64,000 nucleotides of DNA from Alphaproteobacteria bacterium (GCA_964291415.2 OZ219920.1:1024001-1088000); one strand, 5' to 3'; counted from the first letter of the stretch, positions 8,954 to 30,471 are shown. Notes: a model not told the origin generated them from the letters alone. A program made the numbers and translations.

Positions 8954-8966
8954 GGAGGATCAGGGG

Positions 8967-13189: not shown

Positions 13190-13244
13190 CGCCCTTTCCT
13201 TTCTCCACACCCGCCGCGGTTATACCCCAGGTTGCTGTGAGGCG

Positions 13245-13265
13245 ATCGCACTTTTGCGATTGACA
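13245..13265. promoter_or_regulatory. ATCGCA-CTTT-TGCGAT palindrome abutting a TTGACA -35 hexamer, between divergent mttB and the DddP-like genes
   Basis: Perfect 6-bp inverted repeat at 13245-13260; TTGACA at 13260-13265. Confidence 0.4.
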
Positions 13266-13317
13266 CCCCCGGTGATCGTCCGTTCCATGCCGATCACGTG
13301 ACGGGGACGGTTCGACA

Positions 13318-14568
13318 ATGCTCCAGTCTTCTGCAGACAGTCAGTATCTTGCCCGCAACACGCCGGGAATCGCGCAGCACGATGCCGAGCCGCAGATCAA
13401 TGTTCCGGGGATGCGCCTCTACCGCCTTGGCAGGGTTCAGCAGATGCTGAAGGAACGCTCTCTCGCGGGTGTGCTTCTCTACGATCCCATCAATGTTCGT
13501 TACGCCAACGGCTCCAGCAACATGCAGGTCTGGATCCTGCACAATCAGCACCGGTACTGCTGGGTCCCGGCCGAAGGAGGAACCGTTCTCTTCGACTATC
13601 CGCCGGCCGTTCACCTGTCAGAACACCTCGAGACCATCCGCGAGATCCGTCCGGCCCGCACCTGGACCTACTTTGGCGCCGGCGACAACTACCGGGAGAG
13701 AGTCCGCCTGTGGGCGGACGAACTCGTCGATGTCATCCGCGAGACATCCGGCGGCGACCTCGCCGTGGCCGCCGACCATCTCGACCCTTCTGGCGCCCGG
13801 GCGCTCGAGGAGAGGGGATGCACCATCGCCAACGGACAGGAAGTCATGGAGCGCGCCCGGTCCATCAAGTCCGACGACGAGATCCAGGCGATGCTTGTTT
13901 CCATCTCGGTGTGCGAGGCCGGGATGGCGAAGATGCAGGAGAACCTTCGCGCCGGGATCACGGAGAACCAGCTGTGGTCGCATCTCCACCAGGTGAACAT
14001 CGCCATGGGTGGCGAATGGATCGAGACCCGTCTTCTGGCTTCCGGCGGGCGGACGAATCCGTGGTTCAGGGAGTGCAGCGATCGAATCATCCGGGCCGGA
14101 GAGCTGGTGGCCTTCGACACCGATCTCATCGGACCCTTCGGCTACTGTTCGGATATCTCGCGCACCTGGTACTGCGGTCCCGGCAAGCCGACGGACGAAC
14201 AGCGGCGGCTCTACGCCTATGCCCATGAGCAGATCGAGACCAACATTCAGGAAATGCGTCCGGGCCGGACCTTCCGGGACATTGCCGAATCGTCCTGGCG
14301 TGTTCCGAACGAATTCATGGCGCGCCGCTACGGCTCCATGGCGCACGGTGTCGGCATGGCCGACGAGTGGCCGGGACTGACGTTTTCCGACAAGGCCGAC
14401 AAGGCCATGCCCGGTGTTCTCGAGGAGAACATGACCATTTGTGTCGAGAGCTACATCGGCGCCGAGGACGGCAATGAAGGCGTGAAACTCGAGGAGCAGA
14501 TCCTGGTGACCCCGTCAGGTCCCCAGCGCCTTTCCACATACCCCTTCGACGACGCGTTGCTCGGCTGA
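13318..14568 (+). CDS. M24B metallopeptidase-fold enzyme, DddP (DMSP lyase)-like, paralog 1
   Basis: DPINVRYA..SNMQVW, GGEWIETRLLASGGRTNPWF, FDTDLIG, DISRTW, HGVGMADEWP, CVESYIG, VKLEEQ. Confidence 0.85.
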   Translation: MLQSSADSQYLARNTPGIAQHDAEPQINVPGMRLYRLGRVQQMLKERSLAGVLLYDPINVRYANGSSNMQVWILHNQHRYCWVPAEGGTVLFDYPPAVHLSEHLETIREIRPARTWTYFGAGDNYRERVRLWADELVDVIRETSGGDLAVAADHLDPSGARALEERGCTIANGQEVMERARSIKSDDEIQAMLVSISVCEAGMAKMQENLRAGITENQLWSHLHQVNIAMGGEWIETRLLASGGRTNPWFRECSDRIIRAGELVAFDTDLIGPFGYCSDISRTWYCGPGKPTDEQRRLYAYAHEQIETNIQEMRPGRTFRDIAESSWRVPNEFMARRYGSMAHGVGMADEWPGLTFSDKADKAMPGVLEENMTICVESYIGAEDGNEGVKLEEQILVTPSGPQRLSTYPFDDALLG

Positions 14569-14580
14569 CGGGAGAGTGAC

Positions 14581-15816
14581 ATGAACGATACATTCAGCCT
14601 GGCGCGCAACACCCGTGGCGTTGCCCAGCACGACGCCGAGCCGCAGATCGACATCCGCCGCATGCGCGCCTGGCGCCTGGGCAGGATCCAGGGCGAGCTT
14701 CGCCGCCTCGACCTGGGCGGCATCATTCTCTACGACCCGGTGAACATCCGCTACGCCACCGGCACCAGCAACATGCAGGTGTGGTTCACCCACAATCCGA
14801 TCCGCTATTGCTTCGTTCCGGCCGAGGGCAAGGCTGTCCTCTTCGACTACGAGAAGTCGATGCATCTCTACCGGCACATGGAGACCATCGGCGAGATCAG
14901 GCCGGCTCTGGGCTACATCTACATGGTGGCATCGGAGAACATCGAGGCACGGGTGAAGGCCTGGGCCGAGGATATCGATTCGGTGATGCGCGCCTATGGG
15001 ACCGGTCGGCGCATCGCCGGCGACCGGCTCGACTTCGAGGGCGCCAATGCCCTCCAGGAGATGGGATACGAGATCGCCAGTGGTACGCGCGTGACGGAAC
15101 GCGCCAGGGTGATCAAGTCCGATGACGAAATCGAGGCCATGCTTGTTTCCATCTCCGTCTGCGAGGCGGCCATGGCAAGGATGCGCGAGGAACTGCGTGC
15201 CGGCATCAGCGAGACGGCGCTGTGGTCCATTCTCCATCAGGTGAACATCGAACTCGGAGGCGAGTGGATCGAAACCCGGCTTCTCGCATCCGGGGGCAGG
15301 ACCAATCCATGGTTCCGCGAGGCCTCGAGTCGGGTGATCCGGGCTGGCGAACTCGTTGGTCTCGACACCGACCTCGTCGGCCCCTTCGGTTATTGTGCGG
15401 ACATCAGCCGCACCTGGTTCTGTGGTCCGGGACGACCGACGGACGAGCAGCGCAGGCTCTATTCGCTTGCCCACGAGCAGGTCCAGTTCAACATCGACAT
15501 TCTCGAACCGGGCATGAGTTTCGTCGAGGCCGCCGAGAAGTCGTGGCCCGTCCCGGAGGAGTTCCAGGCCCGGAGGTACGGCATCGCCGCCCACGGGGTC
15601 GGTCTTGTCGACGAGTATCCGTCAATCTCCTTCGCGGACACGCCGCAGCGCTCCTCGACCGGCGTCATCGAACCTGGCATGACACTGTGTGTCGAGAGCT
15701 ACATCGGCGCCGAAGACGGCATCGAGGGCGTCAAGCTCGAGGAACAGGTTCTCGTGACCGACACCGGCGTCCAGCGCCTGTCGAGCTTCCCCTACGAGGA
15801 CGCTCTGCTGGCATAG
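14581..15816 (+). CDS. M24B metallopeptidase-fold enzyme, DddP-like, paralog 2
   Basis: Same motifs (GGEWIETRLLASGGRTNPWF, LDTDLVG, DISRTW, HGVGLVDEYP, VKLEEQ); shares the N-terminal LARNTxGxAQHDAEPQI with paralog 1. Confidence 0.85.
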   Translation: MNDTFSLARNTRGVAQHDAEPQIDIRRMRAWRLGRIQGELRRLDLGGIILYDPVNIRYATGTSNMQVWFTHNPIRYCFVPAEGKAVLFDYEKSMHLYRHMETIGEIRPALGYIYMVASENIEARVKAWAEDIDSVMRAYGTGRRIAGDRLDFEGANALQEMGYEIASGTRVTERARVIKSDDEIEAMLVSISVCEAAMARMREELRAGISETALWSILHQVNIELGGEWIETRLLASGGRTNPWFREASSRVIRAGELVGLDTDLVGPFGYCADISRTWFCGPGRPTDEQRRLYSLAHEQVQFNIDILEPGMSFVEAAEKSWPVPEEFQARRYGIAAHGVGLVDEYPSISFADTPQRSSTGVIEPGMTLCVESYIGAEDGIEGVKLEEQVLVTDTGVQRLSSFPYEDALLA

Positions 15817-15856: not shown

Positions 15857-16822
15857 TCAGCCGGTTCGGGACGTTGCCGTCCGATTCACGAAGACTTCGG
15901 TGAGTGCTGATGAGCAGACGAGAGCGAAGCCGGTGGCCTCTCGCCAGCCGAAGGGCTCGGCGGTCAGGATCCCGGCGCTGGCGATTCCAACCACGACTTC
16001 AATCTGCAGAAGAATTCCCACCCTGGCGGGATCGAGGTGCTGACAGGCATAGAGCTGCATGAACATGATCGGTATCAGGAACACCGCGGCAATCACGAAG
16101 AGCCATGGCAGGGCGTTGAGAGCCGTTTCGGCCTGGGGAAGGATGCCCAGTCCGGTCGCCGGAACCAGGGCCAGGGCGAGCGCGATGACCGAGCCGTAGA
16201 GGAAGAAGGAGAGAACATTCTCGAAGTGACTCGCTTCGGGATCCATGCGGACCCTGGTGGAGCCCCAGGCCCAGAAGATGCCGGCGACGATGGCCATCCA
16301 GTCACCGGCATTGCGGGGGAGGGGCACACCGCCCTCATCGGCCAGCAGGACGAGGATTCCGGCAAAGCCGAGAACGATGGCCGAGACCCGGGCCAGGGTA
16401 AGCCGTCGCTTGAGGAGCCAGATCTCCAGCACCATGCTCCAGGCTGGAGACACGTAGAAGAGAATGAGCGCCCGTGACACCTCGGTGAGCAGCAGGCTGT
16501 CGGCGTAGAGCGCGAAGGCGCCACCGGTGAAGAGGCCCGTGTGCCAGCGCGACAGACCCGATGGCCGGCCCCGCGCCATGAGGAACACCGCCACGGGCGC
16601 CATGATCACCACCGGCATCAGAAACTGGCCGGTCACGGTGGCCCCGGCCGGAAGACCGGTTGCTTCCAGAGCACGCAGGGGTATCCAGAACAGCCCCCAG
16701 ACGGCCGCAGAGACGGCAAGGAAAATGACGGGAAGAGTGGTCGTCAAGGGAGTGAACAGACCGGGCGAGGCGCACCGATCCTCGCCCGGCAGCCGGTGCA
16801 CCGTCAATCCGCAGCGTGTCAT
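15857..16822 (-). CDS. DMT/EamA family transporter (start uncertain)
   Basis: About 10 hydrophobic segments in two repeats; [42 protein letters not shown]. Confidence 0.85.
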
Positions 16823-16829
16823 CGGGGAC

Positions 16830-16858
16830 GTGACAATCGCAGGAAGCGAACCTAGTCT
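16830..16858 (+). promoter_or_regulatory. Putative sigma70 promoter of ilvD
   Basis: GTGACA-N17-TAGTCT. Confidence 0.4.
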
Positions 16859-16895
16859 CCGCCTCGAATTGGCATCAATCTCCAGGGAGTACCTC

Positions 16896-18614
16896 ATGAC
16901 CCGTTGGGACAAGTCCAGGTTGCCGAGCCGCCACGTCTCGGTCGGCCCCAAGAGCGCACCGCATCGCGCCTTCTACTATGCCATGGGCATGAGTGATGCC
17001 GAGGTGGAGCAGCCCTTCGTCGGCGTGGCGACCACCTGGAATGAGGCAGCCCCCTGCAACATCACCCTGATGCGCCAGGCCCAGGCCGCCAAGAAGGGGG
17101 TGAAGGCCGGTGGCGGCACGCCCCGCGAGTTCACCACCATCACCGTGACCGACGGCATTGCGATGGGGCATGCCGGGATGAAGTCATCACTGGTCAGCCG
17201 CGAGGTGATTGCGGATTCGGTGGAACTCACCATGCGCGGTCATTGCTATGACGGCCTCGTCGGACTGGCCGGCTGTGACAAGTCCCTGCCCGGCATGATG
17301 ATGGCCATGGTGAGACTGAACGTCCCGTCGGTCTTCATGTACGGTGGTTCGATTCTGCCCGGGCGCTACCGCAACCGGGACGTCACCATCATCGATGTCT
17401 TCGAGGGTGTCGGAGCCAATGCCTCCGGCGCCATGAGCGATGACGAACTGGATGTGCTCGAACATGCCGCCTGTCCATCGGGTGGGTCGTGCGGCGGGCA
17501 GTTCACCGCCAATACCATGGCGACCGTGTCCGAAGCGATCGGTCTGGCTCTTCCCAATTCAGCCATGACGCCGGCGCCCTTCGACAGCCGCGACATGTTC
17601 GCCGAAGCCTCCGGTCAGGCGGTCATGCGTCTCATTGCCGACGATATCCGGCCACGCGACATCGTCACCCGCAAGGCGCTGGAGAATGCCGCCGTGGTGG
17701 TGGCCGCAACCGGTGGTTCCACCAACGCCGGACTGCATCTTCCTGCCATCGCCCATGAGGCCGGCATCGACTTCACCCTCGAGGATGTCTGCGACGTCTT
17801 TCGAAGAACCCCCTATATCGCCGATCTCAAGCCCGGCGGCCGTTACGTGGCCAAGGACCTCTATGGCATCGGTGGTATTCCGGTGCTGATCAGGACCCTT
17901 CTCGATGGTGGATTCCTGCATGGCGATACTCTCACCGTGACCGGAAAGACGCTCGCTGAAAACCATGCCGACGTCGTGTTTCCCGAAGATCAGGACGTGG
18001 TGCGTCCCGTGACCAATCCGCTGTCGAACACGGGTGGCGTGGTCGGCCTCAGGGGCAATCTTGCGCCCGAAGGCGCCATCGTGAAGATCGCCGGTCTCGC
18101 ACGCCTTCAGTTCCGTGGCCCGGCCCGTTGCTTTGACACCGAGGAGGCCTGCCTCGATGCCGTTCTCGCCAGCGCCTTCGATGAGGGAGACGTTCTGGTC
18201 ATACGCTACGAGGGGCCACGGGGCGGGCCGGGCATGCGCGAGATGCTGGCCACCACCAGCGCACTCTATGGTCAGGGAATGGGTGAAAAGGTGGCGCTGA
18301 TCACGGATGGCCGGTTTTCCGGTGCCACCCGCGGATTCTGCATCGGTCATGTGGGACCGGAGGCGGGAGCAGGCGGGCCGATCGGGCTCCTCAGGGACGG
18401 TGACATGATCGCCATCGACGCGGCGGCCGGAACACTCGATGTCGAACTCGACGCGGCAGAACTCGAAGCCCGCCGCAAGGCGTGGAAGCCCAGAACCACG
18501 GACTACAATTCGGGTGTCATCTGGAAGTACGCACAGACCGTGGGACCGGCCCGGCTTGGCGCCGTCTCCCACCCCGGTGGCGGAGGAGAAACCCACGTCT
18601 TCGCCGATCTGTGA
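16896..18614 (+). CDS. ilvD: Dihydroxy-acid dehydratase
   Basis: [60 protein letters not shown]. Confidence 0.96.
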
Positions 18615-18670
18615 CACCTGAGCGGCTGATCAATGGAAGCGGCGGCGTCCCGAAGTGCCCCGGTGTTCGG

Positions 18671-20857
18671 TCAGCCCTGCGGGGCCGGCGACGCTTCGTT
18701 GTCGGCGGGTGTCGTGTCGAAGGGCAGGTGCACGGTAAACTCGGTGTAGGTATCGGGTTCGGAGTCGACCGTGATGGTGCCGCCGTGCTGGCGAACGATG
18801 TCGTTCGACATCGCCAGTCCGAGCCCGGTTCCCTGGTCCGTCGGTTTGGTGGTGAAGAAGGGGTTGAATATCTTGTCGATGACGTCGTCGGGAATGCCGG
18901 AGCCGTTGTCGTGCACCGAGATCTCGACACCGTCCTCCAGCTTCTTGGTGCTGATCCGGATAACCGGGTCGAAGTGCGCTGACGGGTCCGCCTCGCGAAT
19001 CTTGCGCCGACGGTCATCGGCCGCATAGCAGGCGTTGCCGATCAGATTGAGAAAGACGCGGCCGATGTCCTGGGGGATGATGTCCATCTCCGGAACCTCG
19101 GGGTCGAGTTCAAAGACAAGTTCGGCCTGGAAGTTGGTGTCGGTTGCCCGAGCGCTGTGATAGGCGAGACGGGCATGCTCGTCGACAAGCGGATTGATCG
19201 CGTAGGGCTGACGCTCGCCCGAGCCACGGCCCATCATCAGCATGCTCTGCACGATGCTGTCGGCGCGCGTGCCATGCTGGCGGATGAGCCTGGTGTTCTC
19301 GACCAGGTCGTCGGTGATTTCCCGGACGAGGGCACGGCGTTCCTTCGTCTCTTCGTTTTCATCGATGTCGGCGAGCAGTGCCTCGATCTCCTCCACCATC
19401 TCCTCAAGCAGTTCCGTCGAGCCTTCGGCGAAATTCTTGATGAAGTTGAGGGGATTGCGGATCTCGTGAGCGACTCCTGCCGTCAGTTCACCGAGTGCTG
19501 CGAGCTTCTCGCGCATGACGATCTGGTCCTGGGCCTTTTCGAGATCGGTCAGCGCCGTCTCGATGAGCTCGTTCTTGGCCTTCAATTCGTTGGCCATCTT
19601 CTCGACAAGATTGAGTCGCTGGACTTCAAGGGCATGCTGCCGGAAGACTTCCAGGGCGGAGGACATCTCCGCAATCTCGTCGCTGCCGCGCACCTCGATC
19701 TCTTCCTCCAGGTCGCCCTTGGCCATGATCCGCATGCGTTCCGACAACCTCGACAGGCGCCGGATAAGGCCGCGACCAATGTAGAGCCAGGAGATCAGCG
19801 CAGCACCCACGACACTGACCAGGCTGATGCCGACCAGGAGATTGCGCCCGGTCAGGATGGCGTCCTCGGACGCTTCGGTCGCATCGATGGCGGCCTCTTC
19901 CGCGTCACCGACCAGCTTCTCGACGTTGCTGACAAGGTTGAGGGCCAGCGACTGGTTCAGTTCCAGAATGCTCTGGAGTTCGGTCTCGGTTTCGAGTTCC
20001 CGCTGGCGGATGTCGAAACTGCTGCCCTCGCCGCTTCCAAGCTGATCCATCGCATTGAAGAGACTCTCGAGCTGTTGCCTCTCGTCACTGTCGGGCAGGG
20101 TGTTGAGGTTGTGCTGGATTCCCCTTCTGACAGCCTCGAACCGTTCCTTCAGGGGCTCGAGAAGAGTGATGCTGGACGTGTTGAAGACCGTCGCCAGGAC
20201 TTCGAACGCCACCTTTGTGCCGGAGTGGATTTCCGAAAGGACCCGGTAGCGCAGAATCTCGTGGTCGGTGAACGCGTGGGTCCGGGACATCGGTACCTCG
20301 CCGAGAGCCCGGTAGCCGGTCATGGCATAGAACAGCTGGTCGTCGATGGCCGGAATGAGAAAGTGGTTGAGTTCCCTGGAGAGCACCGCCATGCGGTCCG
20401 TGACACGCAGGCGTGATGCCTCGAGTGCGAAGAGGTTCCACATCAGGTTCTCGATATCGACGATGGTGCTGATCAGATCGCGGCTCTGGGTGCGGATGGG
20501 CTGGAATTGCTCATCATCGCCGCCGAGTTCCTCGAGCAACCGCAGCTGACTGGCGAATTCGTCGCGATTCTGCTGGACCTCGAAACCGGTGTAGGTGAGG
20601 TCGAGTTGGGTGCCGGCCGAGGTGAGCTTCGGCGCCGCCGCTGCCAGGGCACCGCTGTGCTGGGCGATACCGAAGGCGGCGGCAATGGCCGGAACCGTTT
20701 CTTCGCTGACGTGCCGTTGGGCATCCGCGACGCGGTCGAAGGAGTACCAGCCCACCATGCCGGAGATGACCGTCAGCGTGACCGCCCCCATGATGGCGAT
20801 GGTGAGCTGCGCCGAGATGCGCGAGCGCAGATCGTAGAGGCGCCGGAACATCGTCAC
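18671..20857 (-). CDS. Membrane sensor histidine kinase: TorS/PgtB-type helical periplasmic domain, HAMP, HisKA, HATPase
   Basis: TM1 ending VGWY, about 300-aa helical periplasmic region (..KLTSA..), TM2, HAMP (GSDEIAEM), H-box AHEIRNPLNF, N-box NLIGNA, DNGSG, FFTTK, GTGLGL. Confidence 0.9.
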   Translation of the reverse strand: MTMFRRLYDLRSRISAQLTIAIMGAVTLTVISGMVGWYSFDRVADAQRHVSEETVPAIAAAFGIAQHSGALAAAAPKLTSAGTQLDLTYTGFEVQQNRDEFASQLRLLEELGGDDEQFQPIRTQSRDLISTIVDIENLMWNLFALEASRLRVTDRMAVLSRELNHFLIPAIDDQLFYAMTGYRALGEVPMSRTHAFTDHEILRYRVLSEIHSGTKVAFEVLATVFNTSSITLLEPLKERFEAVRRGIQHNLNTLPDSDERQQLESLFNAMDQLGSGEGSSFDIRQRELETETELQSILELNQSLALNLVSNVEKLVGDAEEAAIDATEASEDAILTGRNLLVGISLVSVVGAALISWLYIGRGLIRRLSRLSERMRIMAKGDLEEEIEVRGSDEIAEMSSALEVFRQHALEVQRLNLVEKMANELKAKNELIETALTDLEKAQDQIVMREKLAALGELTAGVAHEIRNPLNFIKNFAEGSTELLEEMVEEIEALLADIDENEETKERRALVREITDDLVENTRLIRQHGTRADSIVQSMLMMGRGSGERQPYAINPLVDEHARLAYHSARATDTNFQAELVFELDPEVPEMDIIPQDIGRVFLNLIGNACYAADDRRRKIREADPSAHFDPVIRISTKKLEDGVEISVHDNGSGIPDDVIDKIFNPFFTTKPTDQGTGLGLAMSNDIVRQHGGTITVDSEPDTYTEFTVHLPFDTTPADNEASPAPQG

Positions 20858-22089
20858 TCCCCGCCGTCGCCGGCCGTCTCGATCACCGTCCGGTAACGGC
20901 CCTGATCATCGACGACCGTCAGGAAGACCGCATCGGACCCCTGGTTGCCGTCTCCGAACCGGATCGGGAACCCTCCAAGATCGATGACGCGATCGTCGGT
21001 CATGGTGTCGAGGAAACAGGCGCGATCGGGGGATTCCCCACAGCTTTCCAGGATGCTGACGGCCAGGCGACCCGCCAGGTAGCCCTCGAGTGACACGAAT
21101 CCGGGAGGAGTTTCCGGAAACTCCCGCGCCAGAAGCGTGCGATAGTGCTCGACGATCGGTGGACTGGCGACAGTGCTGTCATCGTCAACCACGCGAACGC
21201 GCCCGTCATCGATGAAGACAGCGCCCTCGTTGTCGCCCGGTGGCGGAACCACCTGGGTCACGAAGATGCCGCTGCTGGCGGGTCCGAGTTTCTCGATGAG
21301 TGCATTGCTGCCGACGAACGAGATGGTCATGAAATGGGGTTCGAAGCCGATCTGTTTCGCCCAGGCGATGAAAGTGGCCACCGGATCATAGGCGCCAACG
21401 AGTACGACTGCATCGGGATTGGCGGCTCGAAGATCGAGAAGCCCTGTCTTGACTGCCGTGGTGTTGCGTGGGTAGACGCCGGTTCCGACCATCGCAAGAC
21501 CACGGCGCTCGAGAGCGATCTGCACACCGCGCAGACCGGCCTGGCCGAATGAATCGTCCTGGTAGAACACGCCAATACGGTCGATACCCAGGGATCTTGT
21601 CAGGAAATCGACGATTTTCTCGGTTTCCTGATAGTATGACGCCCGCAAGTTGATCACGGTGCTCCACTGGCGGTCTCGCAGGAAGGCGGCGCCGGTGAAG
21701 GGTGCGATGTAGGGCACATTGTCGGCGTGGGCCACCGGGACGGCAGACCTCGAGGTTGGCGTGCCGACGGCGCCGATCAGCGCAAAGACGTTCTCCCGTG
21801 TGATCAGCTCCGTCGTGTTGGCGATGGCCGCTTCCGGCTCGTAGGCATCATCGAGCGAGACAAGTTCGAGAGTGCGGCCAAAGACACCGCCCGCCTCGTT
21901 GGCTTCCGCAAATGCCAACTCGATGCCCAGCCGAATCTCCTTTCCAAGATCCTGCGCCGGTCCGCTGAAGGCTGCCGACTGTCCGAACTTGATGGAATCG
22001 TCGTCGACGCCGGACTCCTGGCCGTGGGCAAGGCTGGCGGCCAGGACGAGAACGGCAGCGCACAATCGGGGCTGCAGGGCCCGTAGCAT
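20854..22089 (-). CDS. Periplasmic ligand-binding protein (Leu/Ile/Val-binding type I fold) with no cognate permease
   Basis: Signal peptide (ASLAHG/Q), FGQSAAFSGP, DDAYEP, GAVGTPT, NLRASY, QDDSFG, SLEGY. Confidence 0.88.
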   Translation of the reverse strand: MLRALQPRLCAAVLVLAASLAHGQESGVDDDSIKFGQSAAFSGPAQDLGKEIRLGIELAFAEANEAGGVFGRTLELVSLDDAYEPEAAIANTTELITRENVFALIGAVGTPTSRSAVPVAHADNVPYIAPFTGAAFLRDRQWSTVINLRASYYQETEKIVDFLTRSLGIDRIGVFYQDDSFGQAGLRGVQIALERRGLAMVGTGVYPRNTTAVKTGLLDLRAANPDAVVLVGAYDPVATFIAWAKQIGFEPHFMTISFVGSNALIEKLGPASSGIFVTQVVPPPGDNEGAVFIDDGRVRVVDDDSTVASPPIVEHYRTLLAREFPETPPGFVSLEGYLAGRLAVSILESCGESPDRACFLDTMTDDRVIDLGGFPIRFGDGNQGSDAVFLTVVDDQGRYRTVIETAGDGGE

Positions 22090-22508
22090 CAGTTCCTCCG
22101 CTTGGAGAGTGCCACGTGATTCTTGTTGTCGTCCCGCCAGTACCGGACGTCATCCACGAGCGTCTTGACGAAATGAACGCCGAGTCCGCCGACCCTGCGT
22201 TCTGCCAGCGCCGAGTCCGTGTCGGGATCCGGGGCATCCTCCAGGGGGTTGAAAGGGTCGCCATCGTCAACGATCCGGATCCTGACTTCGTCATCGTCGG
22301 ACTCGATCGTGACCGTCATGTCGTGATCGAGGTTGTCGCTGTGGGCGTAGTTGACCACGTTGGTGCACAGTTCATCGAGAACCAGCCTGATCTTGAATTC
22401 GATGTCCGGTTGCCAGCCCTCGGCGCCGGAAACCTCGTCCACGGCGGTCTCGACCTTCTGCAGTTCCTCGATGGTCGTCCTGATGACCAGGGTCGTGCTG
22501 GCTGCCAC
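22089..22508 (-). CDS. RsbW/SpoIIAB-like anti-sigma factor Ser kinase (HATPase_c_2)
   Basis: LVLDELCTNVVNYA, DDGDPFNP, GGLGVHFVK; GTG start just after the upstream stop. Confidence 0.88.
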   Translation of the reverse strand: MAASTTLVIRTTIEELQKVETAVDEVSGAEGWQPDIEFKIRLVLDELCTNVVNYAHSDNLDHDMTVTIESDDDEVRIRIVDDGDPFNPLEDAPDPDTDSALAERRVGGLGVHFVKTLVDDVRYWRDDNKNHVALSKRRN

Positions 22509-22512
22509 ACCA

Positions 22513-23670
22513 TCACTCCGAACGGTAGAGAGTGAGACACGTGATGTCGTCAAACTGCGGAGCGTCCCCCGAGAAGGCCTCAACCGCTCTGAACACGATG
22601 TCGTTGGCTTCCCTGGCGCTTGTCGGCGGCGACTCGCTGAACAGTTCCGTCAGCTGTTCCAGGCCGAACTGGTCCTGGTTCACGTTCTCGGCCTCCGTCA
22701 CGCCGTCGGTATAGCAGACGGCCATGTCACCGGGCTCCAGCCGGATCTGCTGTTGCGTGTACTCGATGCCGGGCACAACCCCGAGCGCAACGCCGGCGGA
22801 GGTGCCGAACACTGTGTGGCTGCCATCCGCGTGGACGATGAGCGGGGGATTGTGACCTGCATTGGCAAAGGTGAGGAGGCCCGAGGCGGGATCGTAGATG
22901 GCAAAGAACAGGGTCACGAACATCGACGTTTCGTTGTTCTCGTTCAGCAGTTCGTTGACTTCCGTCAGCACTTCGCTTGGCGACGTTCTGCCAACAGCTG
23001 CGCCCTTGAGAAGGGTGCGGCTCGACATCATGAAGAGTGCGGCGGGGACGCCCTTTCCGGAGACATCCGCTATGGCCAGGCCGACCCTGTTGTCAGGCAG
23101 GTTGAGAATGTCGAAAAAATCGCCGCCGACGTCCCGGGCCGGCTCCATGTTGGCAAAGACCTGGTAGGTCTGCGTCTCCGGAAAACTCGTCGGAAGGATT
23201 GCCTGCTGCATCGATCGTCCGACGCTGAGCTCGTTTTCCAGGGCGACGAGCTTGTCGCGTGATTGCAGTGCTTCGCGGAGCATCGTGAGATGCCGCAGGG
23301 TGCGATCGATGGTGACCCTCAGATCATCGAAATCAAGCGGCTTGGTCACGAAGTCGAAGGCGCCGCGATTCATCGCGGTGCGGATGTTCTTCATGTCGCC
23401 ATAGGCCGAGACAATCACCGAACGGATGTTGGGATCCACCTTGGGAATCTGTTCCAGCAGCGTCAGGCCATCCATCTCGGGCATGTTGATGTCCGAGAGA
23501 ACCATCTCGATTTCGGGGTCCTCGTTGAGCGCCTCGAGGGCCTGGACGCCGTTGCCGGCAAACGTGAAGTGGAACTTCCCGCGTCTGATCTCCCGGCGCA
23601 TGCGCTGCAGCATCAGGCGCTCCAGATCCGGTTCATCGTCAACGACAAGTATCTTGCGGGGTTCGGTCAT
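22513..23670 (-). CDS. Response regulator with REC domain and PP2C/SpoIIE phosphatase (RsbU/RsbP-like)
   Basis: ILVVDDE, LSDINMP, SAYG, VTKP; VGGDFFD, ADVSGKG, NAGHNPP, YTDGVTE, DDIT. Confidence 0.93.
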   Translation of the reverse strand: MTEPRKILVVDDEPDLERLMLQRMRREIRRGKFHFTFAGNGVQALEALNEDPEIEMVLSDINMPEMDGLTLLEQIPKVDPNIRSVIVSAYGDMKNIRTAMNRGAFDFVTKPLDFDDLRVTIDRTLRHLTMLREALQSRDKLVALENELSVGRSMQQAILPTSFPETQTYQVFANMEPARDVGGDFFDILNLPDNRVGLAIADVSGKGVPAALFMMSSRTLLKGAAVGRTSPSEVLTEVNELLNENNETSMFVTLFFAIYDPASGLLTFANAGHNPPLIVHADGSHTVFGTSAGVALGVVPGIEYTQQQIRLEPGDMAVCYTDGVTEAENVNQDQFGLEQLTELFSESPPTSAREANDIVFRAVEAFSGDAPQFDDITCLTLYRSE

Positions 23671-23718
23671 GGGGCGCCCATCAGTAAAGTCAACCGGAGG
23701 TAAGCGGGTGATGCGGCC

Positions 23719-24060
23719 TTACTTTTCCTGTGTGGCGTCAAGCGCCTCGGCCTTGTCGGCACACACCTGGATGATCTTGTCGAATCCGGCTATGGAAAAC
23801 ACCTCCTGGATGGATGGCTGCAACGAATGAAGCGCCAGCTTCGCATTGCGCGTCCACAGGTTCTTGGTGATCACCAGAACCGCCCTCAATCCAGCGCTGT
23901 TGATGTAGCTCAGGTTCTCGAAGTCAACGATGACCCTGCGGATGTCATCCGTGATGGCCCTTTCCATCAGGTGCTGGAACTCGCTGACCGTGGCGCTGTC
24001 AATGCGGCCGTTGACGGTGGTGACAAGGACATCGTCCTCTCGCTCTGTCCTGACTTCCAT
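23719..24060 (-). CDS. STAS-domain anti-sigma factor antagonist (RsbV/SpoIIAA-like)
   Basis: GRIDSA, VDFENLSYINSAGLR (conserved phospho-Ser), EVFSIAGF; RBS AGGAG. Confidence 0.92.
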   Translation of the reverse strand: MEVRTEREDDVLVTTVNGRIDSATVSEFQHLMERAITDDIRRVIVDFENLSYINSAGLRAVLVITKNLWTRNAKLALHSLQPSIQEVFSIAGFDKIIQVCADKAEALDATQEK

Positions 24061-24198
24061 TGTTGAGACCCGCTTTCTCCTGTTGGCGCTGAAATGGCGA
24101 TGACATCAGGGAATCGGACGATTCCCCGGGCAACGAACGGAATGCCGCATCCCTTCTGTCGGTCGGCAGCCTCCGGTGATCCCGATGATCATTCCCGA

Positions 24199-24227
24199 AA
24201 CCTAGAACGCCCCTGCCTGCTGTTCAA
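24199..24227 (-). promoter_or_regulatory. Putative sigma70 promoter of the STAS operon
   Basis: TTGAAC-N17-TAGGTT on the minus strand, about 140 nt upstream of the STAS start. Confidence 0.45.
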
Positions 24228-24236
24228 GCCTGTCGC

Positions 24237-27200
24237 TCATGACTTTGTGCCCATGTCGAGGATCGTTCCGAAGTGGAGGCGCGCCTGTTTCGCCGCATGA
24301 TCGATGGAATCGACAAGGGCATGGGAGACAAGCTGTCCGCCGAGCCGTTCCATGAGCGCGGTGTCGGCCAGGCTGCCGGCCCCTTCCTCTTCTCCGCTCA
24401 GCCGCGCCATGCCCTGGAGATTGTTCCACAGCGCCGTCGTTTCGCCGAGTTCGATGGCGACATCTTCGGCGATGAGGGAGAGGTCGCCGGCGCGTTCGAA
24501 AACTCCGATGGTGTTTCCTGCCAGGATCTCCGGCGTGTCGCGGGCATGCAGAAGCTCCAGGTACTGGGCGATGAACTCGACATCGAGAAGCCCTCCCGGC
24601 ATGTGCTTGATCGTCTCCTGGCTGGCTCGGTTTTCTTCGCGAATGCGCTCTCGCATGTCGATGACGTCGCCAGCAAGGGCTTCCCGGGCGCGCGCCCTGG
24701 TCAGAACGTCATGGCGCACCCGTTCGAACTCGTCCCCAAGTCGTCCGCTGGCGGCGACGACACGGGCCCTGGTGAGGGCCTGGTGTTCCCACGTCCATGC
24801 ATTCTCGTGCTGGTAGGATTCGAAGGAATCGAGGGAACAGGCAATGGGACCGGCCTTTCCGGAGGGGCGCAGCCTCATGTCGACGTCATAGAGGCGGCCT
24901 TCCCTGGTCGGCGCCGTGATGGCGGTGATCAGGCGGCGGCACAGGCGCGCATAGTAGTGAGTGGCCGGGAGTGGCTTGCGGCCATCCGACGCCGCCTCGC
25001 TGCCGCTCTGGTCATAGAGGAACAGGAGGTCGAGATCCGAACTCACCGTCATCTCCCGGCTGCCAAGCTTGCCGAAGGCGATGATCGCGAAGGAGCCGCC
25101 GGGTACACGGCCATGATCCGCCTCGAACTCCCTTTCGACGACGGGCAGCAGGGCGGAAATGCAGGCGTCGGCAATGTCGGAGAGAGGGCGGGCGGCCTCG
25201 ACCGGAGTCAGCATGCCCTCGAGCAGGTGCACGCCGATCTGGAAGACCTTGTCGTTTGCCCAGCGCCTGACCTCGTCAAGCACGTCCTGGAGGTCTCGTG
25301 CCCGGCCGGTGGCCTCGGCCAGCTGGGCGGTCATTTCCTCCCTGTCGAGTTCCAGGGTGTAGAACAGGCGCACCAGACCCCGGCGGGCGGTTTCGGCAAT
25401 CTCCGCTTCGAGGTCCTCGTCATCGAAGGAAAGATCGGTGAACTCGCGGGCGAGCACGCTGTCCATCAGCGTCGGCTTGCGGGTGAGCCAGCGGGACAGA
25501 TATGGCGCCACGCCCAGGATCTCGCCGAGCAGTTCCAGAAGATGTGGATGGGCGGCAACGAGGGAAAGGAAGGATGTACCGGCGGGCAGGCGGGACAGGA
25601 ATTCATCGAACTTCATCAGCACGGCATCGCAGTCGCGCAATCCGGCGAACACGCCCAGCGCCGAGGGTGCAAGGCGCATCAGGTGTTCGATGGATTGCGG
25701 GGTCCGCAGTACCGGGTATGGCCCCGCCTTCCATGCCATGACGGTGGCGGCAGCGCGTTCGGGCTCGCCATAGCCCAGCGCCGCGAGGCTCTTGCGGGTC
25801 GTGTCATCCACCGAATCTCCGGTGAAATCCATGGGTTGTTGCCTGATGCTCTCCACCCTCTCCGCGAAGAGACTGGTGTAGTGCCTTTCGACAACGGCCA
25901 CGGCGTCGAGAAACGAGCATTCCAGTGCATCGGCGTCCGCAAATCCCGAGAAAGCCGCGATGTTGCCGATACCTTCCGCGTTCGCGGGAAGGCTGTGCGT
26001 CTGGCGGTCGTCGACCATCTGCAGCCGGTGCTCGAGGGTGCGCAGAAAGCGGTAGGCCTCTTTCAGTTCAATGGCCGCACCGTGGGTCACGTGCCCGCCT
26101 GCAACGAGGATGTCGAGCGTCTCGCAGGTCCCCCTGGTTCGCAAGGCGGTTTCCCGGCCACCCCAGATCAGCTGTTGTGCCTGCACATAGAATTCAATCT
26201 CGCGAATGCCACCGCCGCCGAGCTTGACGTTGCGTCCCATGAACGTTCCGCCGTCGCGGGAGCGTGACGAGTCGATCTGCTGCTTGATGGTCCGGATATC
26301 CTGCATGGCCGCGAAATCCAGATGGCGCCTCCAGATGAAGGGCTGCAGCTCTTCGAGAAAAACCTCGCCCCTTGCCGTGTCGCCGGCCACGGTGCGTGCC
26401 TTGATCATGGCGGCGCGCTCCCAGTTGCGCGCCGACTCGCGATAGTAGGTTCCGGCAGAGACGGTGGAGATGGCCGGGGGCGTCGACGACGGGTCGGGAC
26501 GCAGTCTGAGATCGGTGCGAAAGACATAGCCGTCGGCAGTCTGTGCGTCGATGATCCGCGTCAGGCCCTGGGCAAAGCGTGTCATTGTCCGCTGCAGATC
26601 CTCGGCTCCAGTGGTCGGCACGATCTCGGGATCAAAGAGAATGATGAGATCGATGTCGCTGGAGTAATTGAGTTCGCCCGCCCCGAACTTGCCCATGCCG
26701 AGAACGAAGAGTCCGCACGCCGTTTCCGCATCATCCGGGTCCGCAAGGATGAGTCTCTCCCTTGCGTGAAGCGCTCGCAACAGGTGCCGGCAGGCCGTCC
26801 TGAGAGCGGTTTCGGCGAATTGCGAGAGGTTGCCGGTGACCTGCTCGAGCGACCAGAGGGACGAGATGTCGGCAAGGCCAGCCGCGAGATGGACACGCCG
26901 CTTGGCACGCCTCAGGCGAGTCATGAGGTCCTTTTCGGTTTCCCCGTCGATGTCCGGCCCCGCCATCGCGATGGCCGCATCGAAGGCGGCGTCCGGGCCG
27001 TCGCCGATCAGCGTCAAGGCGAACAGGGGATCGACCGTCACGCAGCGTGACAGGTAGGGGCTGTGTCGGAAGACGGGATCGAGGATTCCCTCGGCGGCGG
27101 GGCGCAAATCGAGGGCCCGCGTCCTCAGCTCCTCGTCACGAATTCGCCCGGCTGCCGCCTGCCAGCGCTGCCAGAGAAGCTCGACGCTCTCGGGAACCAA

Positions 27201-27239
27201 CTCCGGGGCCTTCAGTCCGGACCAGGCCTGGAAAATCAT
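24237..27239 (-). CDS. glnE: Glutamine synthetase adenylyltransferase/deadenylase
   Basis: Two nucleotidyltransferase domains: GMGKFGAGELNYSSDIDL...DLRLRP and AFGKLGSREMTVSSDLDL...DMRLRP; WEHQAL. Confidence 0.95.
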   Translation of the reverse strand: MIFQAWSGLKAPELVPESVELLWQRWQAAAGRIRDEELRTRALDLRPAAEGILDPVFRHSPYLSRCVTVDPLFALTLIGDGPDAAFDAAIAMAGPDIDGETEKDLMTRLRRAKRRVHLAAGLADISSLWSLEQVTGNLSQFAETALRTACRHLLRALHARERLILADPDDAETACGLFVLGMGKFGAGELNYSSDIDLIILFDPEIVPTTGAEDLQRTMTRFAQGLTRIIDAQTADGYVFRTDLRLRPDPSSTPPAISTVSAGTYYRESARNWERAAMIKARTVAGDTARGEVFLEELQPFIWRRHLDFAAMQDIRTIKQQIDSSRSRDGGTFMGRNVKLGGGGIREIEFYVQAQQLIWGGRETALRTRGTCETLDILVAGGHVTHGAAIELKEAYRFLRTLEHRLQMVDDRQTHSLPANAEGIGNIAAFSGFADADALECSFLDAVAVVERHYTSLFAERVESIRQQPMDFTGDSVDDTTRKSLAALGYGEPERAAATVMAWKAGPYPVLRTPQSIEHLMRLAPSALGVFAGLRDCDAVLMKFDEFLSRLPAGTSFLSLVAAHPHLLELLGEILGVAPYLSRWLTRKPTLMDSVLAREFTDLSFDDEDLEAEIAETARRGLVRLFYTLELDREEMTAQLAEATGRARDLQDVLDEVRRWANDKVFQIGVHLLEGMLTPVEAARPLSDIADACISALLPVVEREFEADHGRVPGGSFAIIAFGKLGSREMTVSSDLDLLFLYDQSGSEAASDGRKPLPATHYYARLCRRLITAITAPTREGRLYDVDMRLRPSGKAGPIACSLDSFESYQHENAWTWEHQALTRARVVAASGRLGDEFERVRHDVLTRARAREALAGDVIDMRERIREENRASQETIKHMPGGLLDVEFIAQYLELLHARDTPEILAGNTIGVFERAGDLSLIAEDVAIELGETTALWNNLQGMARLSGEEEGAGSLADTALMERLGGQLVSHALVDSIDHAAKQARLHFGTILDMGTKS

Positions 27240-27300: not shown

Positions 27301-28107
27301 TCAGCGTGCCCGCGGCATGTCGACCGCCGGCTTCACGGGTTCCTGCAGGCGAAAGAGCCTGCCCGGACCGGCCATGGGATCATGGACACCGATCTGCCGC
27401 AGCATGCGCCAGACGAGTGCCTGGTTGCTCGTCACGACCGGTCTGCCGGTCTCATCCTCGATCGCGTCGATGACCTCGACAGCGCGAAGGGCCGTGCACG
27501 ACAGGAATATGCCGTCACAATTGATTGTGCAGGCGTCGAGGGCGAGGCGCGCGATGTCACGGGGCTCGACTCGCGCCATGTCCCGACCCCGGGCAATGCC
27601 GAGTCCCCTCATGGAGCAGACTTCGAATCCGCGATCTTCGAGGAACGCCGCCTCCATGCGGTTGACCTCGTCGAGATAGGGCGTACCCACAGCCACACGG
27701 GTGATCCCGAGATGGCGCATGGCGTCGACGACGCACGTGACCAGCGCCAGGGCACGGGTCTCCGGCTGTGCGCTCCTGATGGCGCGTTCGACGGCAGCCT
27801 CGCCCGCGGCAATGCTGCCCGAGGTGCACACATAGGCGATGGCGTCGAGATTCTCGGGCAGCAGGCGCGCCGCATCGTTCAGATCTCCGGCAACCGCAGC
27901 CAGATTCTGCACGTTCACCGGATCGGCAAGCCGCACTCTGGTAACGAAGACACCGACATCCCGCGGCACCATCGCCCGGATGTCGTCGTCCGCCGTCTCT
28001 TCGGTGTCGAGAAGGATGAAGCCCAGGCGCCCCCTGGCATGGCGTCCCTGTCCCTCGTTGCCGGGCGAGAGACACGGCCGGACCCGGGTCGAGGCGTGGT
28101 CAGTCAT
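27301..28107 (-). CDS. Maleate cis-trans isomerase / Asp-Glu racemase / EutA-like protein
   Basis: Two catalytic Cys motifs, AYVCTSGS and FLSCTAL; TPY; PVVTSNQA; start overlaps the xth stop. Confidence 0.85.
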   Translation of the reverse strand: MTDHASTRVRPCLSPGNEGQGRHARGRLGFILLDTEETADDDIRAMVPRDVGVFVTRVRLADPVNVQNLAAVAGDLNDAARLLPENLDAIAYVCTSGSIAAGEAAVERAIRSAQPETRALALVTCVVDAMRHLGITRVAVGTPYLDEVNRMEAAFLEDRGFEVCSMRGLGIARGRDMARVEPRDIARLALDACTINCDGIFLSCTALRAVEVIDAIEDETGRPVVTSNQALVWRMLRQIGVHDPMAGPGRLFRLQEPVKPAVDMPRAR

Positions 28108-28873
28108 CGAGTTCGCACACAAGAGGCGTGTGATCCGACGCCTTCGGCCAGGCACGGGGTGCGCGATCGATGTCGCACGCCACCAGGCGGTCCGCCGCAT
28201 GAGGAGAAAGCAGCATGTGGTCGATCCTGACACCGTGATCCTTTGGCCAGGCGCCACGCTGGTAGTCCCAGAACGTCCAGGCGCCCGCCGTCGTTCCGTG
28301 CAGGGTGGCATAGGCCTCCGTGTAGCCTGACCACACGAGTTCGCGAAACAGCGCCCGGGATTCATCGCGCGTGAGGGCGTCTCCTGGCTGAAGGGCCGAT
28401 TCGTGCGCGTCGTCGTCGGTGGGGCACACATTGTAGTCGCCGCCCAGAACGACCGCTTCCTCGCAAGCGAGGAGGCTGCGGGCATGATCGACCAGACGCC
28501 GCATCCATGCCAGTTTGTAGGCGAACTTTTCGCCCGGCGCCGGATTGCCGTTGGGGAGATAGATTGAAGCGACCCGCAGGCCGTGGGTGAAGACCTCGAT
28601 GTAGCGCGCCTGCGCGTCCTCCGGATCGCCCGGAAGGCAGATTGTCTCGATGTCGATGGGAGACTTGGAGAGGACGGCAACTCCGTTGAGCGCCTTTTGC
28701 CCGGCCACCGCGCAGTTGTACCCGAGATCGCCGATGGCATCGTGGGGGAAGGTCTCCGAAACGGTCTTGAGTTCCTGCAGAAGGACGATGTCCGGCTGCC
28801 GGGCTTCAAGCCATTTCAGCACGTTGGGCAGCCGTACCCTGATCGAGTTGACATTCCAGGTGGCAATCTTCAT
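28100..28873 (-). CDS. xth: Exodeoxyribonuclease III
   Basis: MKIATWNVNS, LQELK, YLPNG, GGDYN, WDY, RIDH, SDH. Confidence 0.95.
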   Translation of the reverse strand: MKIATWNVNSIRVRLPNVLKWLEARQPDIVLLQELKTVSETFPHDAIGDLGYNCAVAGQKALNGVAVLSKSPIDIETICLPGDPEDAQARYIEVFTHGLRVASIYLPNGNPAPGEKFAYKLAWMRRLVDHARSLLACEEAVVLGGDYNVCPTDDDAHESALQPGDALTRDESRALFRELVWSGYTEAYATLHGTTAGAWTFWDYQRGAWPKDHGVRIDHMLLSPHAADRLVACDIDRAPRAWPKASDHTPLVCELDD

Positions 28874-29325: not shown

Positions 29326-30471
29326 ATGACCTCAGCACCCTATGCAGCATATCAGGCGACGAGTCGTGGCCGTCGCTTCGCCGAACAGCCGTCCTGCTAC
29401 CGCAGCGAGTACCAGCGAGACCGTGACCGCATCATTCACAGCAGGGCGTTCCGTCGTCTGATGCACAAGACGCAGGTCTTCGCCACTGTTCACGGCGACC
29501 ATCACCGCACCCGCATGACCCATTCCCTCGAGGTGGCGCAGATCGCCCGGACCATTGCCCGCAGTCTGGCTCTCGACGAAGATCTTGCCGAGGCGATCGC
29601 GCTAGCACACGATCTCGGTCACACCCCGTTTGGCCACATCGGCGAAGAGATTCTCGATGAGGCCATGGCGCCGTGGGGTGGTTTCAGCCACAACATCCAG
29701 ACCTTTCGAATCCTCACGCAACTGGAATCCCCCTATGCTGCCTTCGACGGCCTCAACCTGACCTGGGAGACCCTTGAAGGCGTTGTCAAGCACAATGGGC
29801 CCCTGTTGTCTGCGGTACCGCCGGCCATCGCGCGCTACAACCGTCTGCAGGATCTCGAGGTCGATTCGTTTCCGGGCGTGGAGGCCCAGGTCGCTTCGCT
29901 GGCCGACGACATCGCTTACAACGGCCATGATCTCGACGATGGCCTGAGGATGGGCCTCTTCACGCTGGACGACCTCGCCGGCGCGCCGGTTGCCGCGGAA
30001 GCGATCCGGGAGGTTCGGGAGCGCTGGCCCGATGCGCCCCTCGTGCGCAAGATTCACGAAACCATGAGAAAGATCATCGACGTGCAGGTCCGGGATCTGG
30101 TCGAGACATCGCGCGCAACCCTGGCCTGTGTGCGCCCTCAGTCGGCCGATGATGTCCGTTGGCACGACGCGCAGGTCATCGGTTTCAGCGAGGCCTTTGC
30201 GGACGCGGCGGCGGGCTTGAAGGCGTGGCTCTACACAAATATGTACTGCCACGAACGGTTGCGGGGGCAGGCCCGGGAAGCCGGAGCCATACTCCGTGGT
30301 CTGTTCTCGGCCTTCCGAGACGATCCGCAACGTCTGCCGGTCGAATGGAAGGAACATCTGGACGGGTGTGGCGAAGCGGACCGCATGCGCCTGGTCGCCG
30401 ACTATCTCGCCGGCATGACGGACCGCTTCGCACACAAGGAACATCAACGCCTGGTACGCCACGAACCATGA
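29326..30471 (+). CDS. dgt: dGTP triphosphohydrolase-like (HD domain)
   Basis: RDRDRIIHS.AFRRL..KTQVF, RTRMTHSLEV, AHDLGHTPFGH, ADDIAY, DYLAGMTD. Confidence 0.93.
   Translation: MTSAPYAAYQATSRGRRFAEQPSCYRSEYQRDRDRIIHSRAFRRLMHKTQVFATVHGDHHRTRMTHSLEVAQIARTIARSLALDEDLAEAIALAHDLGHTPFGHIGEEILDEAMAPWGGFSHNIQTFRILTQLESPYAAFDGLNLTWETLEGVVKHNGPLLSAVPPAIARYNRLQDLEVDSFPGVEAQVASLADDIAYNGHDLDDGLRMGLFTLDDLAGAPVAAEAIREVRERWPDAPLVRKIHETMRKIIDVQVRDLVETSRATLACVRPQSADDVRWHDAQVIGFSEAFADAAAGLKAWLYTNMYCHERLRGQAREAGAILRGLFSAFRDDPQRLPVEWKEHLDGCGEADRMRLVADYLAGMTDRFAHKEHQRLVRHEP

Follow-up and report, generated by a model that had tools for sequence, protein, structure and literature searches.

The 64,000-nucleotide (nt) stretch of DNA analysed here (Alphaproteobacteria bacterium, GCA_964291415.2 OZ219920.1:1024001-1088000; hereafter the window) carries a cassette of five genes, all on the minus strand. 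In the order of transcription, these code for a STAS-domain protein, a protein in which a receiver domain (REC) is fused to a SpoIIE-type serine phosphatase (PP2C), an RsbW-like kinase, an orphan periplasmic binding protein, and a membrane histidine kinase.

The first gene (23719-24060) codes for a 113-residue STAS-domain protein of the anti-sigma-factor-antagonist type (Pfam STAS, 2.4e-18). A gap of 48 nt separates it from the gene for the REC-PP2C protein (22513-23670; 385 amino acids), which has its REC domain at ~23308-23652 (Response_reg, 3.3e-23) and its PP2C domain at ~22528-23097 (SpoIIE, 2.8e-56). The stop codon of this gene (TGA, 22515-22513) is followed by a GTG start codon at 22508, from which a 139-residue GHKL serine kinase of the RsbW-like, anti-sigma type is encoded (22089-22508; HATPase_c_2, 1.8e-25); GGAG at 22519-22516 precedes this GTG, and the longest open reading frame (ORF) begins at an alternative TTG at 22583. 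The RsbW stop codon (TGA, 22091-22089) shares one nucleotide with the ATG (22089-22087) of the binding-protein gene (junction TGATG). The binding protein (20854-22089; 411 amino acids) is of the LivJ/Peripla_BP_6 type (Peripla_BP_6, 1.6e-59), and its TGA (20856-20854) overlaps the GTG (20857-20855) of the kinase gene by 4 nt (GTGA, 20854-20857). The histidine kinase (18671-20857; 728 amino acids) carries a TorS_sensor_domain (2.8e-8), HAMP, HisKA (with His464), and HATPase_c. Five co-oriented genes, the last four tightly coupled, had been claimed in an original prediction for this stretch, which the ORF table and the junction sequences bear out.

In NCBIfam, all five proteins stay below the equivalog cut-offs. 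The scan of window genes gave no sigma factor and upheld the claim that the cassette itself contains no sigma or DNA-binding gene; one DeoR/LsrR-like regulator gene (6220-7212) was noted ~11 kb from the cassette. As predicted, the binding protein has no permease or ATPase gene nearby: LivHMGF-type transporter genes neither adjoin it in the window nor occur among the 76 neighbour ORFs scanned in related loci, and the nearest components of ATP-binding cassette (ABC) transporters are ATPase genes at 5260-6210 and 36385-37431, more than 12 kb from the cassette. A scan of 18300-24500 for promoters and terminators was uninformative (0 promoter-like sites; 4 terminator-like sites versus 4.5 expected), and the sigma54 -24/-12 pattern has 19 matches in the window versus 26.3 expected. 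The window is chromosomal, since it carries gyrA, uvrA, secDF, tatC, serS, and glnE. The predicted alphaproteobacterial host agrees with the window UvrA, whose named relatives (69-75% identity) are mostly Rhodospirillales-type alphaproteobacteria.

Conservation of the cassette

A genome scan with the kinase returned at least 80 loci. Twenty-seven of them match both the sensor and the kinase core, and 53 match the kinase core alone. The gene content of the 27 loci was read by tblastn with the five window proteins. A binding-protein gene lies directly upstream of the kinase gene in 27/27 loci, and the overlap of start and stop codons is repeated in most of the called gene pairs. Two of these binding-protein genes are not intact: that of L003 is interrupted by the contig end, and that of L015 (6884-7965) is divided between two reading frames (pieces 24-246 and 247-402), pointing to a frameshift or an error of assembly. 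The REC-PP2C protein (45-67% identical) is encoded in 25/27 loci and is missing in L003, whose contig has just 793 bases upstream, and in L007. RsbW and STAS are each found in 23/27 loci, as are all five genes together.

The gene order and strand of the window are kept in 15/27 loci. Several loci differ in the switch genes: in L011, L018, L022, and L073, the STAS gene is downstream and on the other strand; in L023 and L024, both RsbW and STAS are upstream, with their strand reversed; and in L045 STAS alone is on the opposite strand, with RsbW before REC-PP2C on the kinase strand. In L035 (958-6829), two STAS and two RsbW copies are present, with a xanthine/uracil permease gene between them.

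The carriers are Dehalococcoidia/SAR202 and Caldilineaceae (Chloroflexota), Acidobacteriota, Gemmatimonadota, Acidimicrobiia (Actinomycetota), Latescibacterota, Alphaproteobacteria, Pseudomonadales, and Bacteriovoracaceae, so that the cassette is conserved across at least eight phyla or classes. At the protein level, 5,450 relatives of the kinase were found at E <= 1e-10 among 8,000 candidates scored; the best 120 of them are all full-length, with 51-96% identity. Plasmids were searched with the kinase by tblastn as well (72,556 plasmids), and 0/3,161 matching records reach at least 80% query coverage. Because the five-gene arrangement recurs in 27 related loci from many phyla, it is far beyond chance. 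The synteny proposed as a check of the original prediction is conserved for the binding protein and the kinase throughout, and for the remaining genes in most loci.

From the periplasmic sensor to the switch

Hydropathy analysis of the kinase reveals two strongly hydrophobic segments (~residues 18-36 and 340-358), which enclose a periplasmic sensor of ~300 residues (residues 40-340; 19838-20740). The Pfam match to TorS_sensor_domain (PF21689) is weak but above threshold (34 bits versus a cut-off of 27). An AlphaFold2 model of residues 40-340, computed with 27 orthologues, is confident and all-helical (predicted local distance difference test, pLDDT, 92.7; predicted template modelling score, pTM, 0.82). 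When this model was compared with the PDB by Foldseek, the top six matches were all TorS sensor domains (template modelling score, TM, 0.60-0.86; best E 1.7e-6; best match TM 0.74/0.82). Four of these six chains are from entries of the TorS-TorT complex (3o1i, 3o1h, 3o1j; TM 0.72-0.82), and the next match after TorS is PilJ, with a much lower TM. A sequence search of the PDB with the kinase matched kinase cores alone and gave nothing for the sensor, so that fold comparison was needed to recognise its likeness to TorS. We conclude from the model that the sensor is a TorS-type fold, i.e. a double four-helix bundle.

The kinase had been called TorS/PgtB-type. This holds for the fold of the sensor and does not extend to family membership: the kinase falls short of the equivalog cut-offs of both TorS (TIGR02956, 174.2 bits versus 676.5) and PgtB (NF047794, 85.6 bits versus 1000), and Pfam finds neither REC nor Hpt in it, so that it is non-hybrid.

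The binding protein has an N-terminal hydrophobic segment resembling a signal peptide. The profile of its orthologues matches PDB entry 4kv7 over the full length (7.2e-100); this is a structural genomics entry, on which a literature search found no relevant paper. With a mean column identity of 62% and 60 invariant columns, the protein is strikingly conserved across phyla, and this argues for one common ligand of the family. The window protein contains an acidic 21-residue insertion (residues 289-309; 21163-21225, minus strand) that is specific to the window and absent from all 25 aligned orthologues. The features of an ABC-transport protein of the LivJ/HAAT type are present in part: the protein has the fold, but no LivHMGF-type genes were found beside it in the window or among the neighbours scanned in the loci, and it scores 68.8 bits versus a cut-off of 477 (NF011933).

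Prediction of the complex between binding protein and sensor had been proposed as a check. The pair was modelled 1:1, unlike the 2:2 TorS-TorT complex, and the partner in the window belongs to Peripla_BP_6, not to the TorT-family Peripla_BP_1. The prediction yielded an ipSAE of 0.51 (runs 0.51, 0.50, and 0.58), far above the best control (0.01), with a partner pLDDT of at least 88 and at least 96% of contacts shared between runs; the tool rates the prediction as "weak support". In the calibration, scores of 0.60 or below comprise 18/157 solved complexes and both of the 2 mismatches that passed, and at this level a passing model is usually wrong if the pair was not a likely one beforehand, which counts against docking. 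Because the adjacency of the two genes in 27/27 loci made the prior high, we read the model as modest corroboration of docking, short of proof.

Residues expected to be essential for signalling had been described as intact, which is confirmed for the window proteins and extends to their orthologues. The kinase residues H464, N604, N608, D650, and G654 are conserved in 28/28 sequences. In the REC-PP2C protein, D11, D12, D60, and K110 of the receiver, with Asp60 as the phospho-acceptor, and the metal-binding aspartates D184, D187, D202, D322, D374, and D375 of the PP2C domain are conserved in 26/26. The closest solved relative of REC-PP2C is 3eq2 (E 5.3e-25); the protein stays below the equivalog cut-off of Pseudomonas RssB (NF045505, 114.6 bits versus 700). 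Apart from RssB, the best NCBIfam matches of the receiver are NtrC-family receivers, and the kinase core is NtrB/AtoS/ZraS-like by NCBIfam.

Pairing of the two families is also seen beyond the cassette. Among the 53 core-only loci, 35 have a receiver homologue that starts at most 700 nt downstream on the same strand, and five of these 35 (L032, L034, L041, L070, L077) have a full REC-PP2C. Because the kinase-core and receiver families thus travel together in many contexts, their co-occurrence supports a predicted phosphotransfer from His464 to Asp60. The kinase-core paralogues stand behind other sensors (L030-L080, e.g. L031 8001-9666, L071, L072, L078; those in plasmid records are annotated as GAF domain-containing) and as a rule precede one or two genes for receivers that share 38-66% identity with that of the window; some of these receivers are fused to a second kinase.

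The sensor, in turn, is found with other outputs. A sensor-only profile search of 1.84 billion representatives returned 216 proteins at E <= 1e-30 and 992 at E <= 1e-10. For 19 longer matches, Pfam assigned chemoreceptor signalling domains to 6, nucleotide cyclases to 2, and histidine kinases to 7 (including a hybrid that has a receiver and another kinase that has a PAS domain); 3 have no recognisable output domain, and 1 (P0233) carries SpoIIE and HATPase_c_2. In P0233, the sensor (residues 49-358) is directly fused to both domains in one protein. Judged by its domain composition, this fusion independently links such a sensor with an output of the PP2C/RsbW type. The sensor domain thus recurs in chemoreceptors, nucleotide cyclases, a hybrid kinase, and the PP2C-RsbW fusion (P0192, P0209, P0224, P0236, P0242, P0250, P0182, P0199, P0174, P0233).

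The last layer has the features of an RsbU/V/W-type switch: a STAS serine in a DSxG-like loop, the boxes of a GHKL kinase, and a SpoIIE-type PP2C with metal-binding aspartates. The cognate sigma gene that such a locus usually includes did not turn up in the scan of window genes. The STAS protein scores 72 bits with TIGR00377, above the NCBIfam cut-off of 53.45, and its predicted phospho-acceptor Ser55 (INSAGL) is conserved in 26/27 sequences. Ser55 would correspond to the phosphorylation site of SpoIIAA/RsbV. In the RsbW-like kinase, the N-box residues E46 and N50, D81, and the GGxG glycines G107, G108, and G110 are conserved in 25/25 sequences; its RsbW/SpoIIAB matches in NCBIfam are weak and below the cut-off (43.9 bits versus 145).

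Nitrogen-related genes beside the cassette

The neighbour ORFs of the 27 loci were clustered and scanned with Pfam, and the loci carrying an ammonium transporter (Amt), GlnE (glutamine synthetase adenylyltransferase), or ATP-grasp were listed by tblastn. Three types of neighbour recur. The first is a cluster coding for a circularly permuted ATP-grasp protein, an Alpha-E protein, and a transglutaminase-like protein. ATP-grasp is encoded in 8 loci (L004, L006, L009, L012, L015, L019, L023, L073), and the cluster is directly upstream of the cassette on the same strand in L004, L009, and L073. The second is an ammonium transporter gene, which flanks the cassette in 7 loci; in L012 and L019 it immediately precedes the STAS gene, and the two share a strand. 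The third is glnE, which flanks the cassette in L018, L022, and L024, and is contiguous with RsbW and STAS in the latter (glnE-RsbW-STAS).

The window itself shows the order glnE-STAS. Its glnE (24237-27239, minus strand; NCBIfam NF010706, 955.9 bits versus a cut-off of 724) is the same-strand neighbour immediately upstream of the cassette, 176 nt before the STAS gene. We treat it as context that is possibly functionally linked; its membership in the cassette is unproven.

Genes for Amt, GlnE, or the ATP-grasp cluster occur in the flanks of 14/27 cassette loci versus 1/53 core-only loci (Fisher p = 1.6e-7), a p-value which is indicative only and loses weight because the control loci are kinase paralogues from a different mix of organisms and the loci are non-independent. 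A regular-expression scan found a PII-like motif neither in the 27 loci nor in the window, which is a weak negative.

The ATP-grasp cluster has been linked to nitrogen in other bacteria. When B. cenocepacia is limited for nitrogen, expression of the cluster (I35_5080-83) depends strongly on NtrC/sigma54 and is 6- to 9.4-fold lower in an ntrC mutant (PMC5491218), and domains of the cluster co-vary with urea-metabolism domains in marine metagenomes (PMC3597751). In some of the loci collected here, Amt lies inside or beside the ATP-grasp/Alpha-E/transglutaminase cluster, which ties this uncharacterised cluster to ammonium: the order ATP-grasp, Amt, Alpha-E is seen in L006 (11843-16585) and L019 (10302-14112, minus strand), and Amt followed by a directly adjacent ATP-grasp gene in L023 (197-2996, minus strand).

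It had been speculated that the ligand of the binding protein is an amine or amide, given the catabolic genes of the window. These form an amine/amide-type cluster (8940-15816) with an N,N-dimethylformamidase-beta-like gene (8940-11207), an MttB-family methyltransferase gene (11666-13210), and two creatinase/prolidase-like M24 genes (13318-15816), to which an EutA/arylmalonate-decarboxylase-like ORF at 27301-28809 is added, with a match that begins only at residue 256. As pointers to the ligand, the dimethylformamidase-, MttB-, and creatinase-like genes were rejected, since none of the neighbour ORFs scanned in the related loci belongs to their Pfam families. The more general part of the speculation survives: because Amt, GlnE, and the NtrC-regulated ATP-grasp cluster recur beside the cassette, a nitrogen-containing ligand is plausible on grounds of gene context.

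Two further genes of the window need comment. The argS gene (30159-32236, plus strand) is apparently split into overlapping ORFs (30159-31754 and 31727-32236), which match N- and C-terminal parts of arginine-tRNA ligase models; this could reflect a frameshift or a sequencing error. The ilvD ORF (16527-18614, plus strand) codes for 695 amino acids from its first start codon. Because family models match from ~residue 130, its true start is probably ~390 nt downstream.

Proposed circuit, alternative readings and known systems

We lean towards reading the cassette as a three-layer circuit, in which a periplasmic, nitrogen-related signal would be passed through the kinase to a PP2C/RsbW switch acting on the STAS protein. 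On the input side, the orphan LivJ-type binding protein would sense a small solute and dock on the TorS-fold domain of the adjacent kinase, for which the complex model gives weak support. The kinase would then autophosphorylate on His464 and pass the phosphoryl group to Asp60 of REC-PP2C; this step is proposed from the pairing of the two families and from synteny. By analogy with RsbU/V/W and RsbY, the RsbW-like kinase would phosphorylate Ser55 of the STAS protein, the PP2C domain would remove this phosphate, and the unphosphorylated STAS protein would bind RsbW. The output would be post-translational and exerted on a partner encoded outside the cassette. Since genes for an ammonium transporter, for GlnE, and for the NtrC-regulated ATP-grasp cluster recur next to it, both signal and response may concern the supply of nitrogen.

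That the five genes act as one circuit had been predicted, and the prediction is supported by synteny, intact catalytic residues, the TorS fold, and the coupling of an orphan binding protein to the kinase, as well as by the absence of a sigma or DNA-binding gene from the cassette. As the target of STAS or RsbW, a nitrogen-assimilation protein is our tentative first choice; it is slightly favoured over a sigma factor encoded elsewhere, which we regard as a possible, if doubtful, target. The rest of the weight falls to targets that are neither.

Several observations weigh against this reading, in addition to the calibration of the complex model and the composition of the control loci. RsbW and STAS are both missing nearby in 4/27 loci (L003, at a contig end, L007, L020, and L028), and L007 keeps the binding protein and kinase only. 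The flanks of 13/27 cassette loci contain none of the nitrogen genes. A sigma54-type match is absent from 24061-24240, including the 176-nt region upstream of the STAS gene, and an RpoD-like sigma gene lies ~3 kb from the cassette in L016. Finally, the 27 loci are not phylogenetically independent, and the sample is not exhaustive and includes no close relative of the window.

The strongest competitor is a classical anti-sigma switch, in which RsbW would sequester a sigma factor, alternative or primary, whose gene lies elsewhere, and thereby govern a stress or stationary-phase response, the nearby nitrogen genes being members of the regulon or a coincidence. The fold and motifs of RsbW are those of an anti-sigma serine kinase, and the STAS protein passes the cut-off of the anti-sigma-antagonist superfamily. 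There is also Gram-negative precedent in HsbR-HsbA of P. aeruginosa, which acts on RpoS (PMC6482189), and the sigma gene of L016 fits this reading. This gene is, however, the only one of its kind among the 76 neighbour ORFs, with none among the window genes scanned, and the phyla that carry the cassette differ widely in their sets of sigma factors. In addition, mutants and two-hybrid assays in R. capsulatus gave no sigma partner (PMC3999984). Taken together, we consider a classical anti-sigma switch unlikely.

Less likely again, by our estimate, is a PII-independent post-translational nitrogen controller, in which a periplasmic nitrogen solute, sensed through the binding protein and the kinase, would determine whether STAS is phosphorylated, and STAS, or RsbW once released by it, would directly bind Amt, GlnE/glutamine synthetase, or the ATP-grasp system, in a role that may be analogous to that of GlnK on AmtB. 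It is hinted at because amt adjoins STAS (L012, L019), glnE adjoins RsbW-STAS (L024) or STAS (window), and the PII motif was not found.

A much smaller share of the weight goes to the possibility that kinase and REC-PP2C are non-cognate, so that the kinase would address a DNA-binding regulator elsewhere and the switch would be fed by another kinase. L007, in which the input pair has no switch genes beside it, would fit this. Against it stand the co-occurrence of REC-PP2C in 25/27 loci, the homologous REC genes that follow paralogous kinase cores in 35/53 loci, and the P0233 fusion of sensor, PP2C, and RsbW, which joins this input to this output. Least probable of all is that the binding protein mainly serves an ABC importer encoded elsewhere, with the kinase sensing its own signal directly, since its membership in the LivJ/HAAT transport family and the existence of binding proteins that serve both transport and signalling (PMC8050422) are set against its immediate adjacency to the kinase, on the upstream side, in 27/27 loci (mostly with a start-stop overlap), the lack of LivHMGF-type genes among the neighbours scanned, a sensor with the fold of TorS, which acts through a binding protein, and a complex model scoring far above controls.

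The original prediction had also held that no characterised system has this architecture. This is too strong in view of RsbK-RsbY-RsbV-RsbW from B. cereus and RbaV/W/Y from R. capsulatus (PMC3999984), which precede the circuit that we propose. In the B. cereus module, a two-component kinase controls a REC-PP2C whose substrate side is a STAS/RsbW pair (PMC3999984, PMC4574943), and the window likewise has a sensor kinase that would feed such a protein. RsbK differs in being a hybrid with its own receiver and in having no binding-protein partner, and sigB is part of the locus; the window kinase is non-hybrid, has a TorS-fold sensor and a coupled orphan binding protein, and is encoded beside no sigma gene.

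RbaV, RbaW, and RbaY of R. capsulatus are, like the window proteins, an alphaproteobacterial set of STAS, RsbW-like, and REC-PP2C proteins with the same domain architectures (PMC3999984), a likeness drawn by description only. There, rbaVW and rbaY are at separate loci, and the excerpt describes neither a kinase nor a binding protein (PMC3999984). The phenotype concerns gene-transfer-agent production and stationary-phase viability (PMC3999984). Genetic study identified no sigma factor as partner for RbaW, and RbaV, the STAS protein, acted as the determinant and was proposed as the output (PMC3999984), so that a non-sigma output has precedent.

The input pair resembles TorT-TorS, which senses trimethylamine N-oxide and also consists of a signalling-dedicated binding protein and a kinase with a double four-helix-bundle sensor, although docking in the window is predicted from the model. 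TorT is a Peripla_BP_1 protein (PMC8050422), and TorS, a hybrid kinase containing REC and Hpt, signals to the DNA-binding TorR, whereas the window kinase would signal to PP2C; the cassette has no TorR-like gene. Other receptors stimulated by binding proteins are LuxP/LuxQ, XylFII/LytS, HptA/HptS, ChvE/VirA, and AioX/AioS, listed together with TorT/TorS (PMC8050422). In the excerpt of that survey, the only signalling receptor that partners a Peripla_BP_6 protein is an archaeal chemotaxis transducer, and no kinase does so (PMC8050422).

On the output side, HptB-HsbR-HsbA of P. aeruginosa and SypE-SypA of V. fischeri resemble the cassette in that a phosphorelay controls a PP2C and an RsbW-type kinase which act on a STAS protein, and their outputs, too, are not a locally encoded sigma factor (PMC6482189, PMC10120452, PMC12826045). 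HsbR and SypE fuse REC, PP2C, and kinase, and they receive their input from Hpt or hybrid kinases, whereas the switch parts in the window are separate genes accompanied by a dedicated pair of binding protein and kinase. A full-text literature search, in which subscription journals were outside the scope, found no paper on this cassette, its input pair, or the nitrogen link. The switch logic is known, while the fixed input by a binding protein and a TorS-fold kinase, and the association with nitrogen genes, appear undescribed.

Partner-switching modules outside the Firmicutes mostly have no known input or output, and here the input side is unusually explicit. The cassette would add a class of binding-protein/kinase pair, namely Peripla_BP_6 with a kinase. 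As it is widely conserved, results on the ligand and on phosphotransfer in one carrier would define a widespread pathway. If the nitrogen link is true, the cassette would represent a level of nitrogen control separate from that by PII/NtrBC and would provide a functional handle on the uncharacterised ATP-grasp/Alpha-E/transglutaminase cluster.

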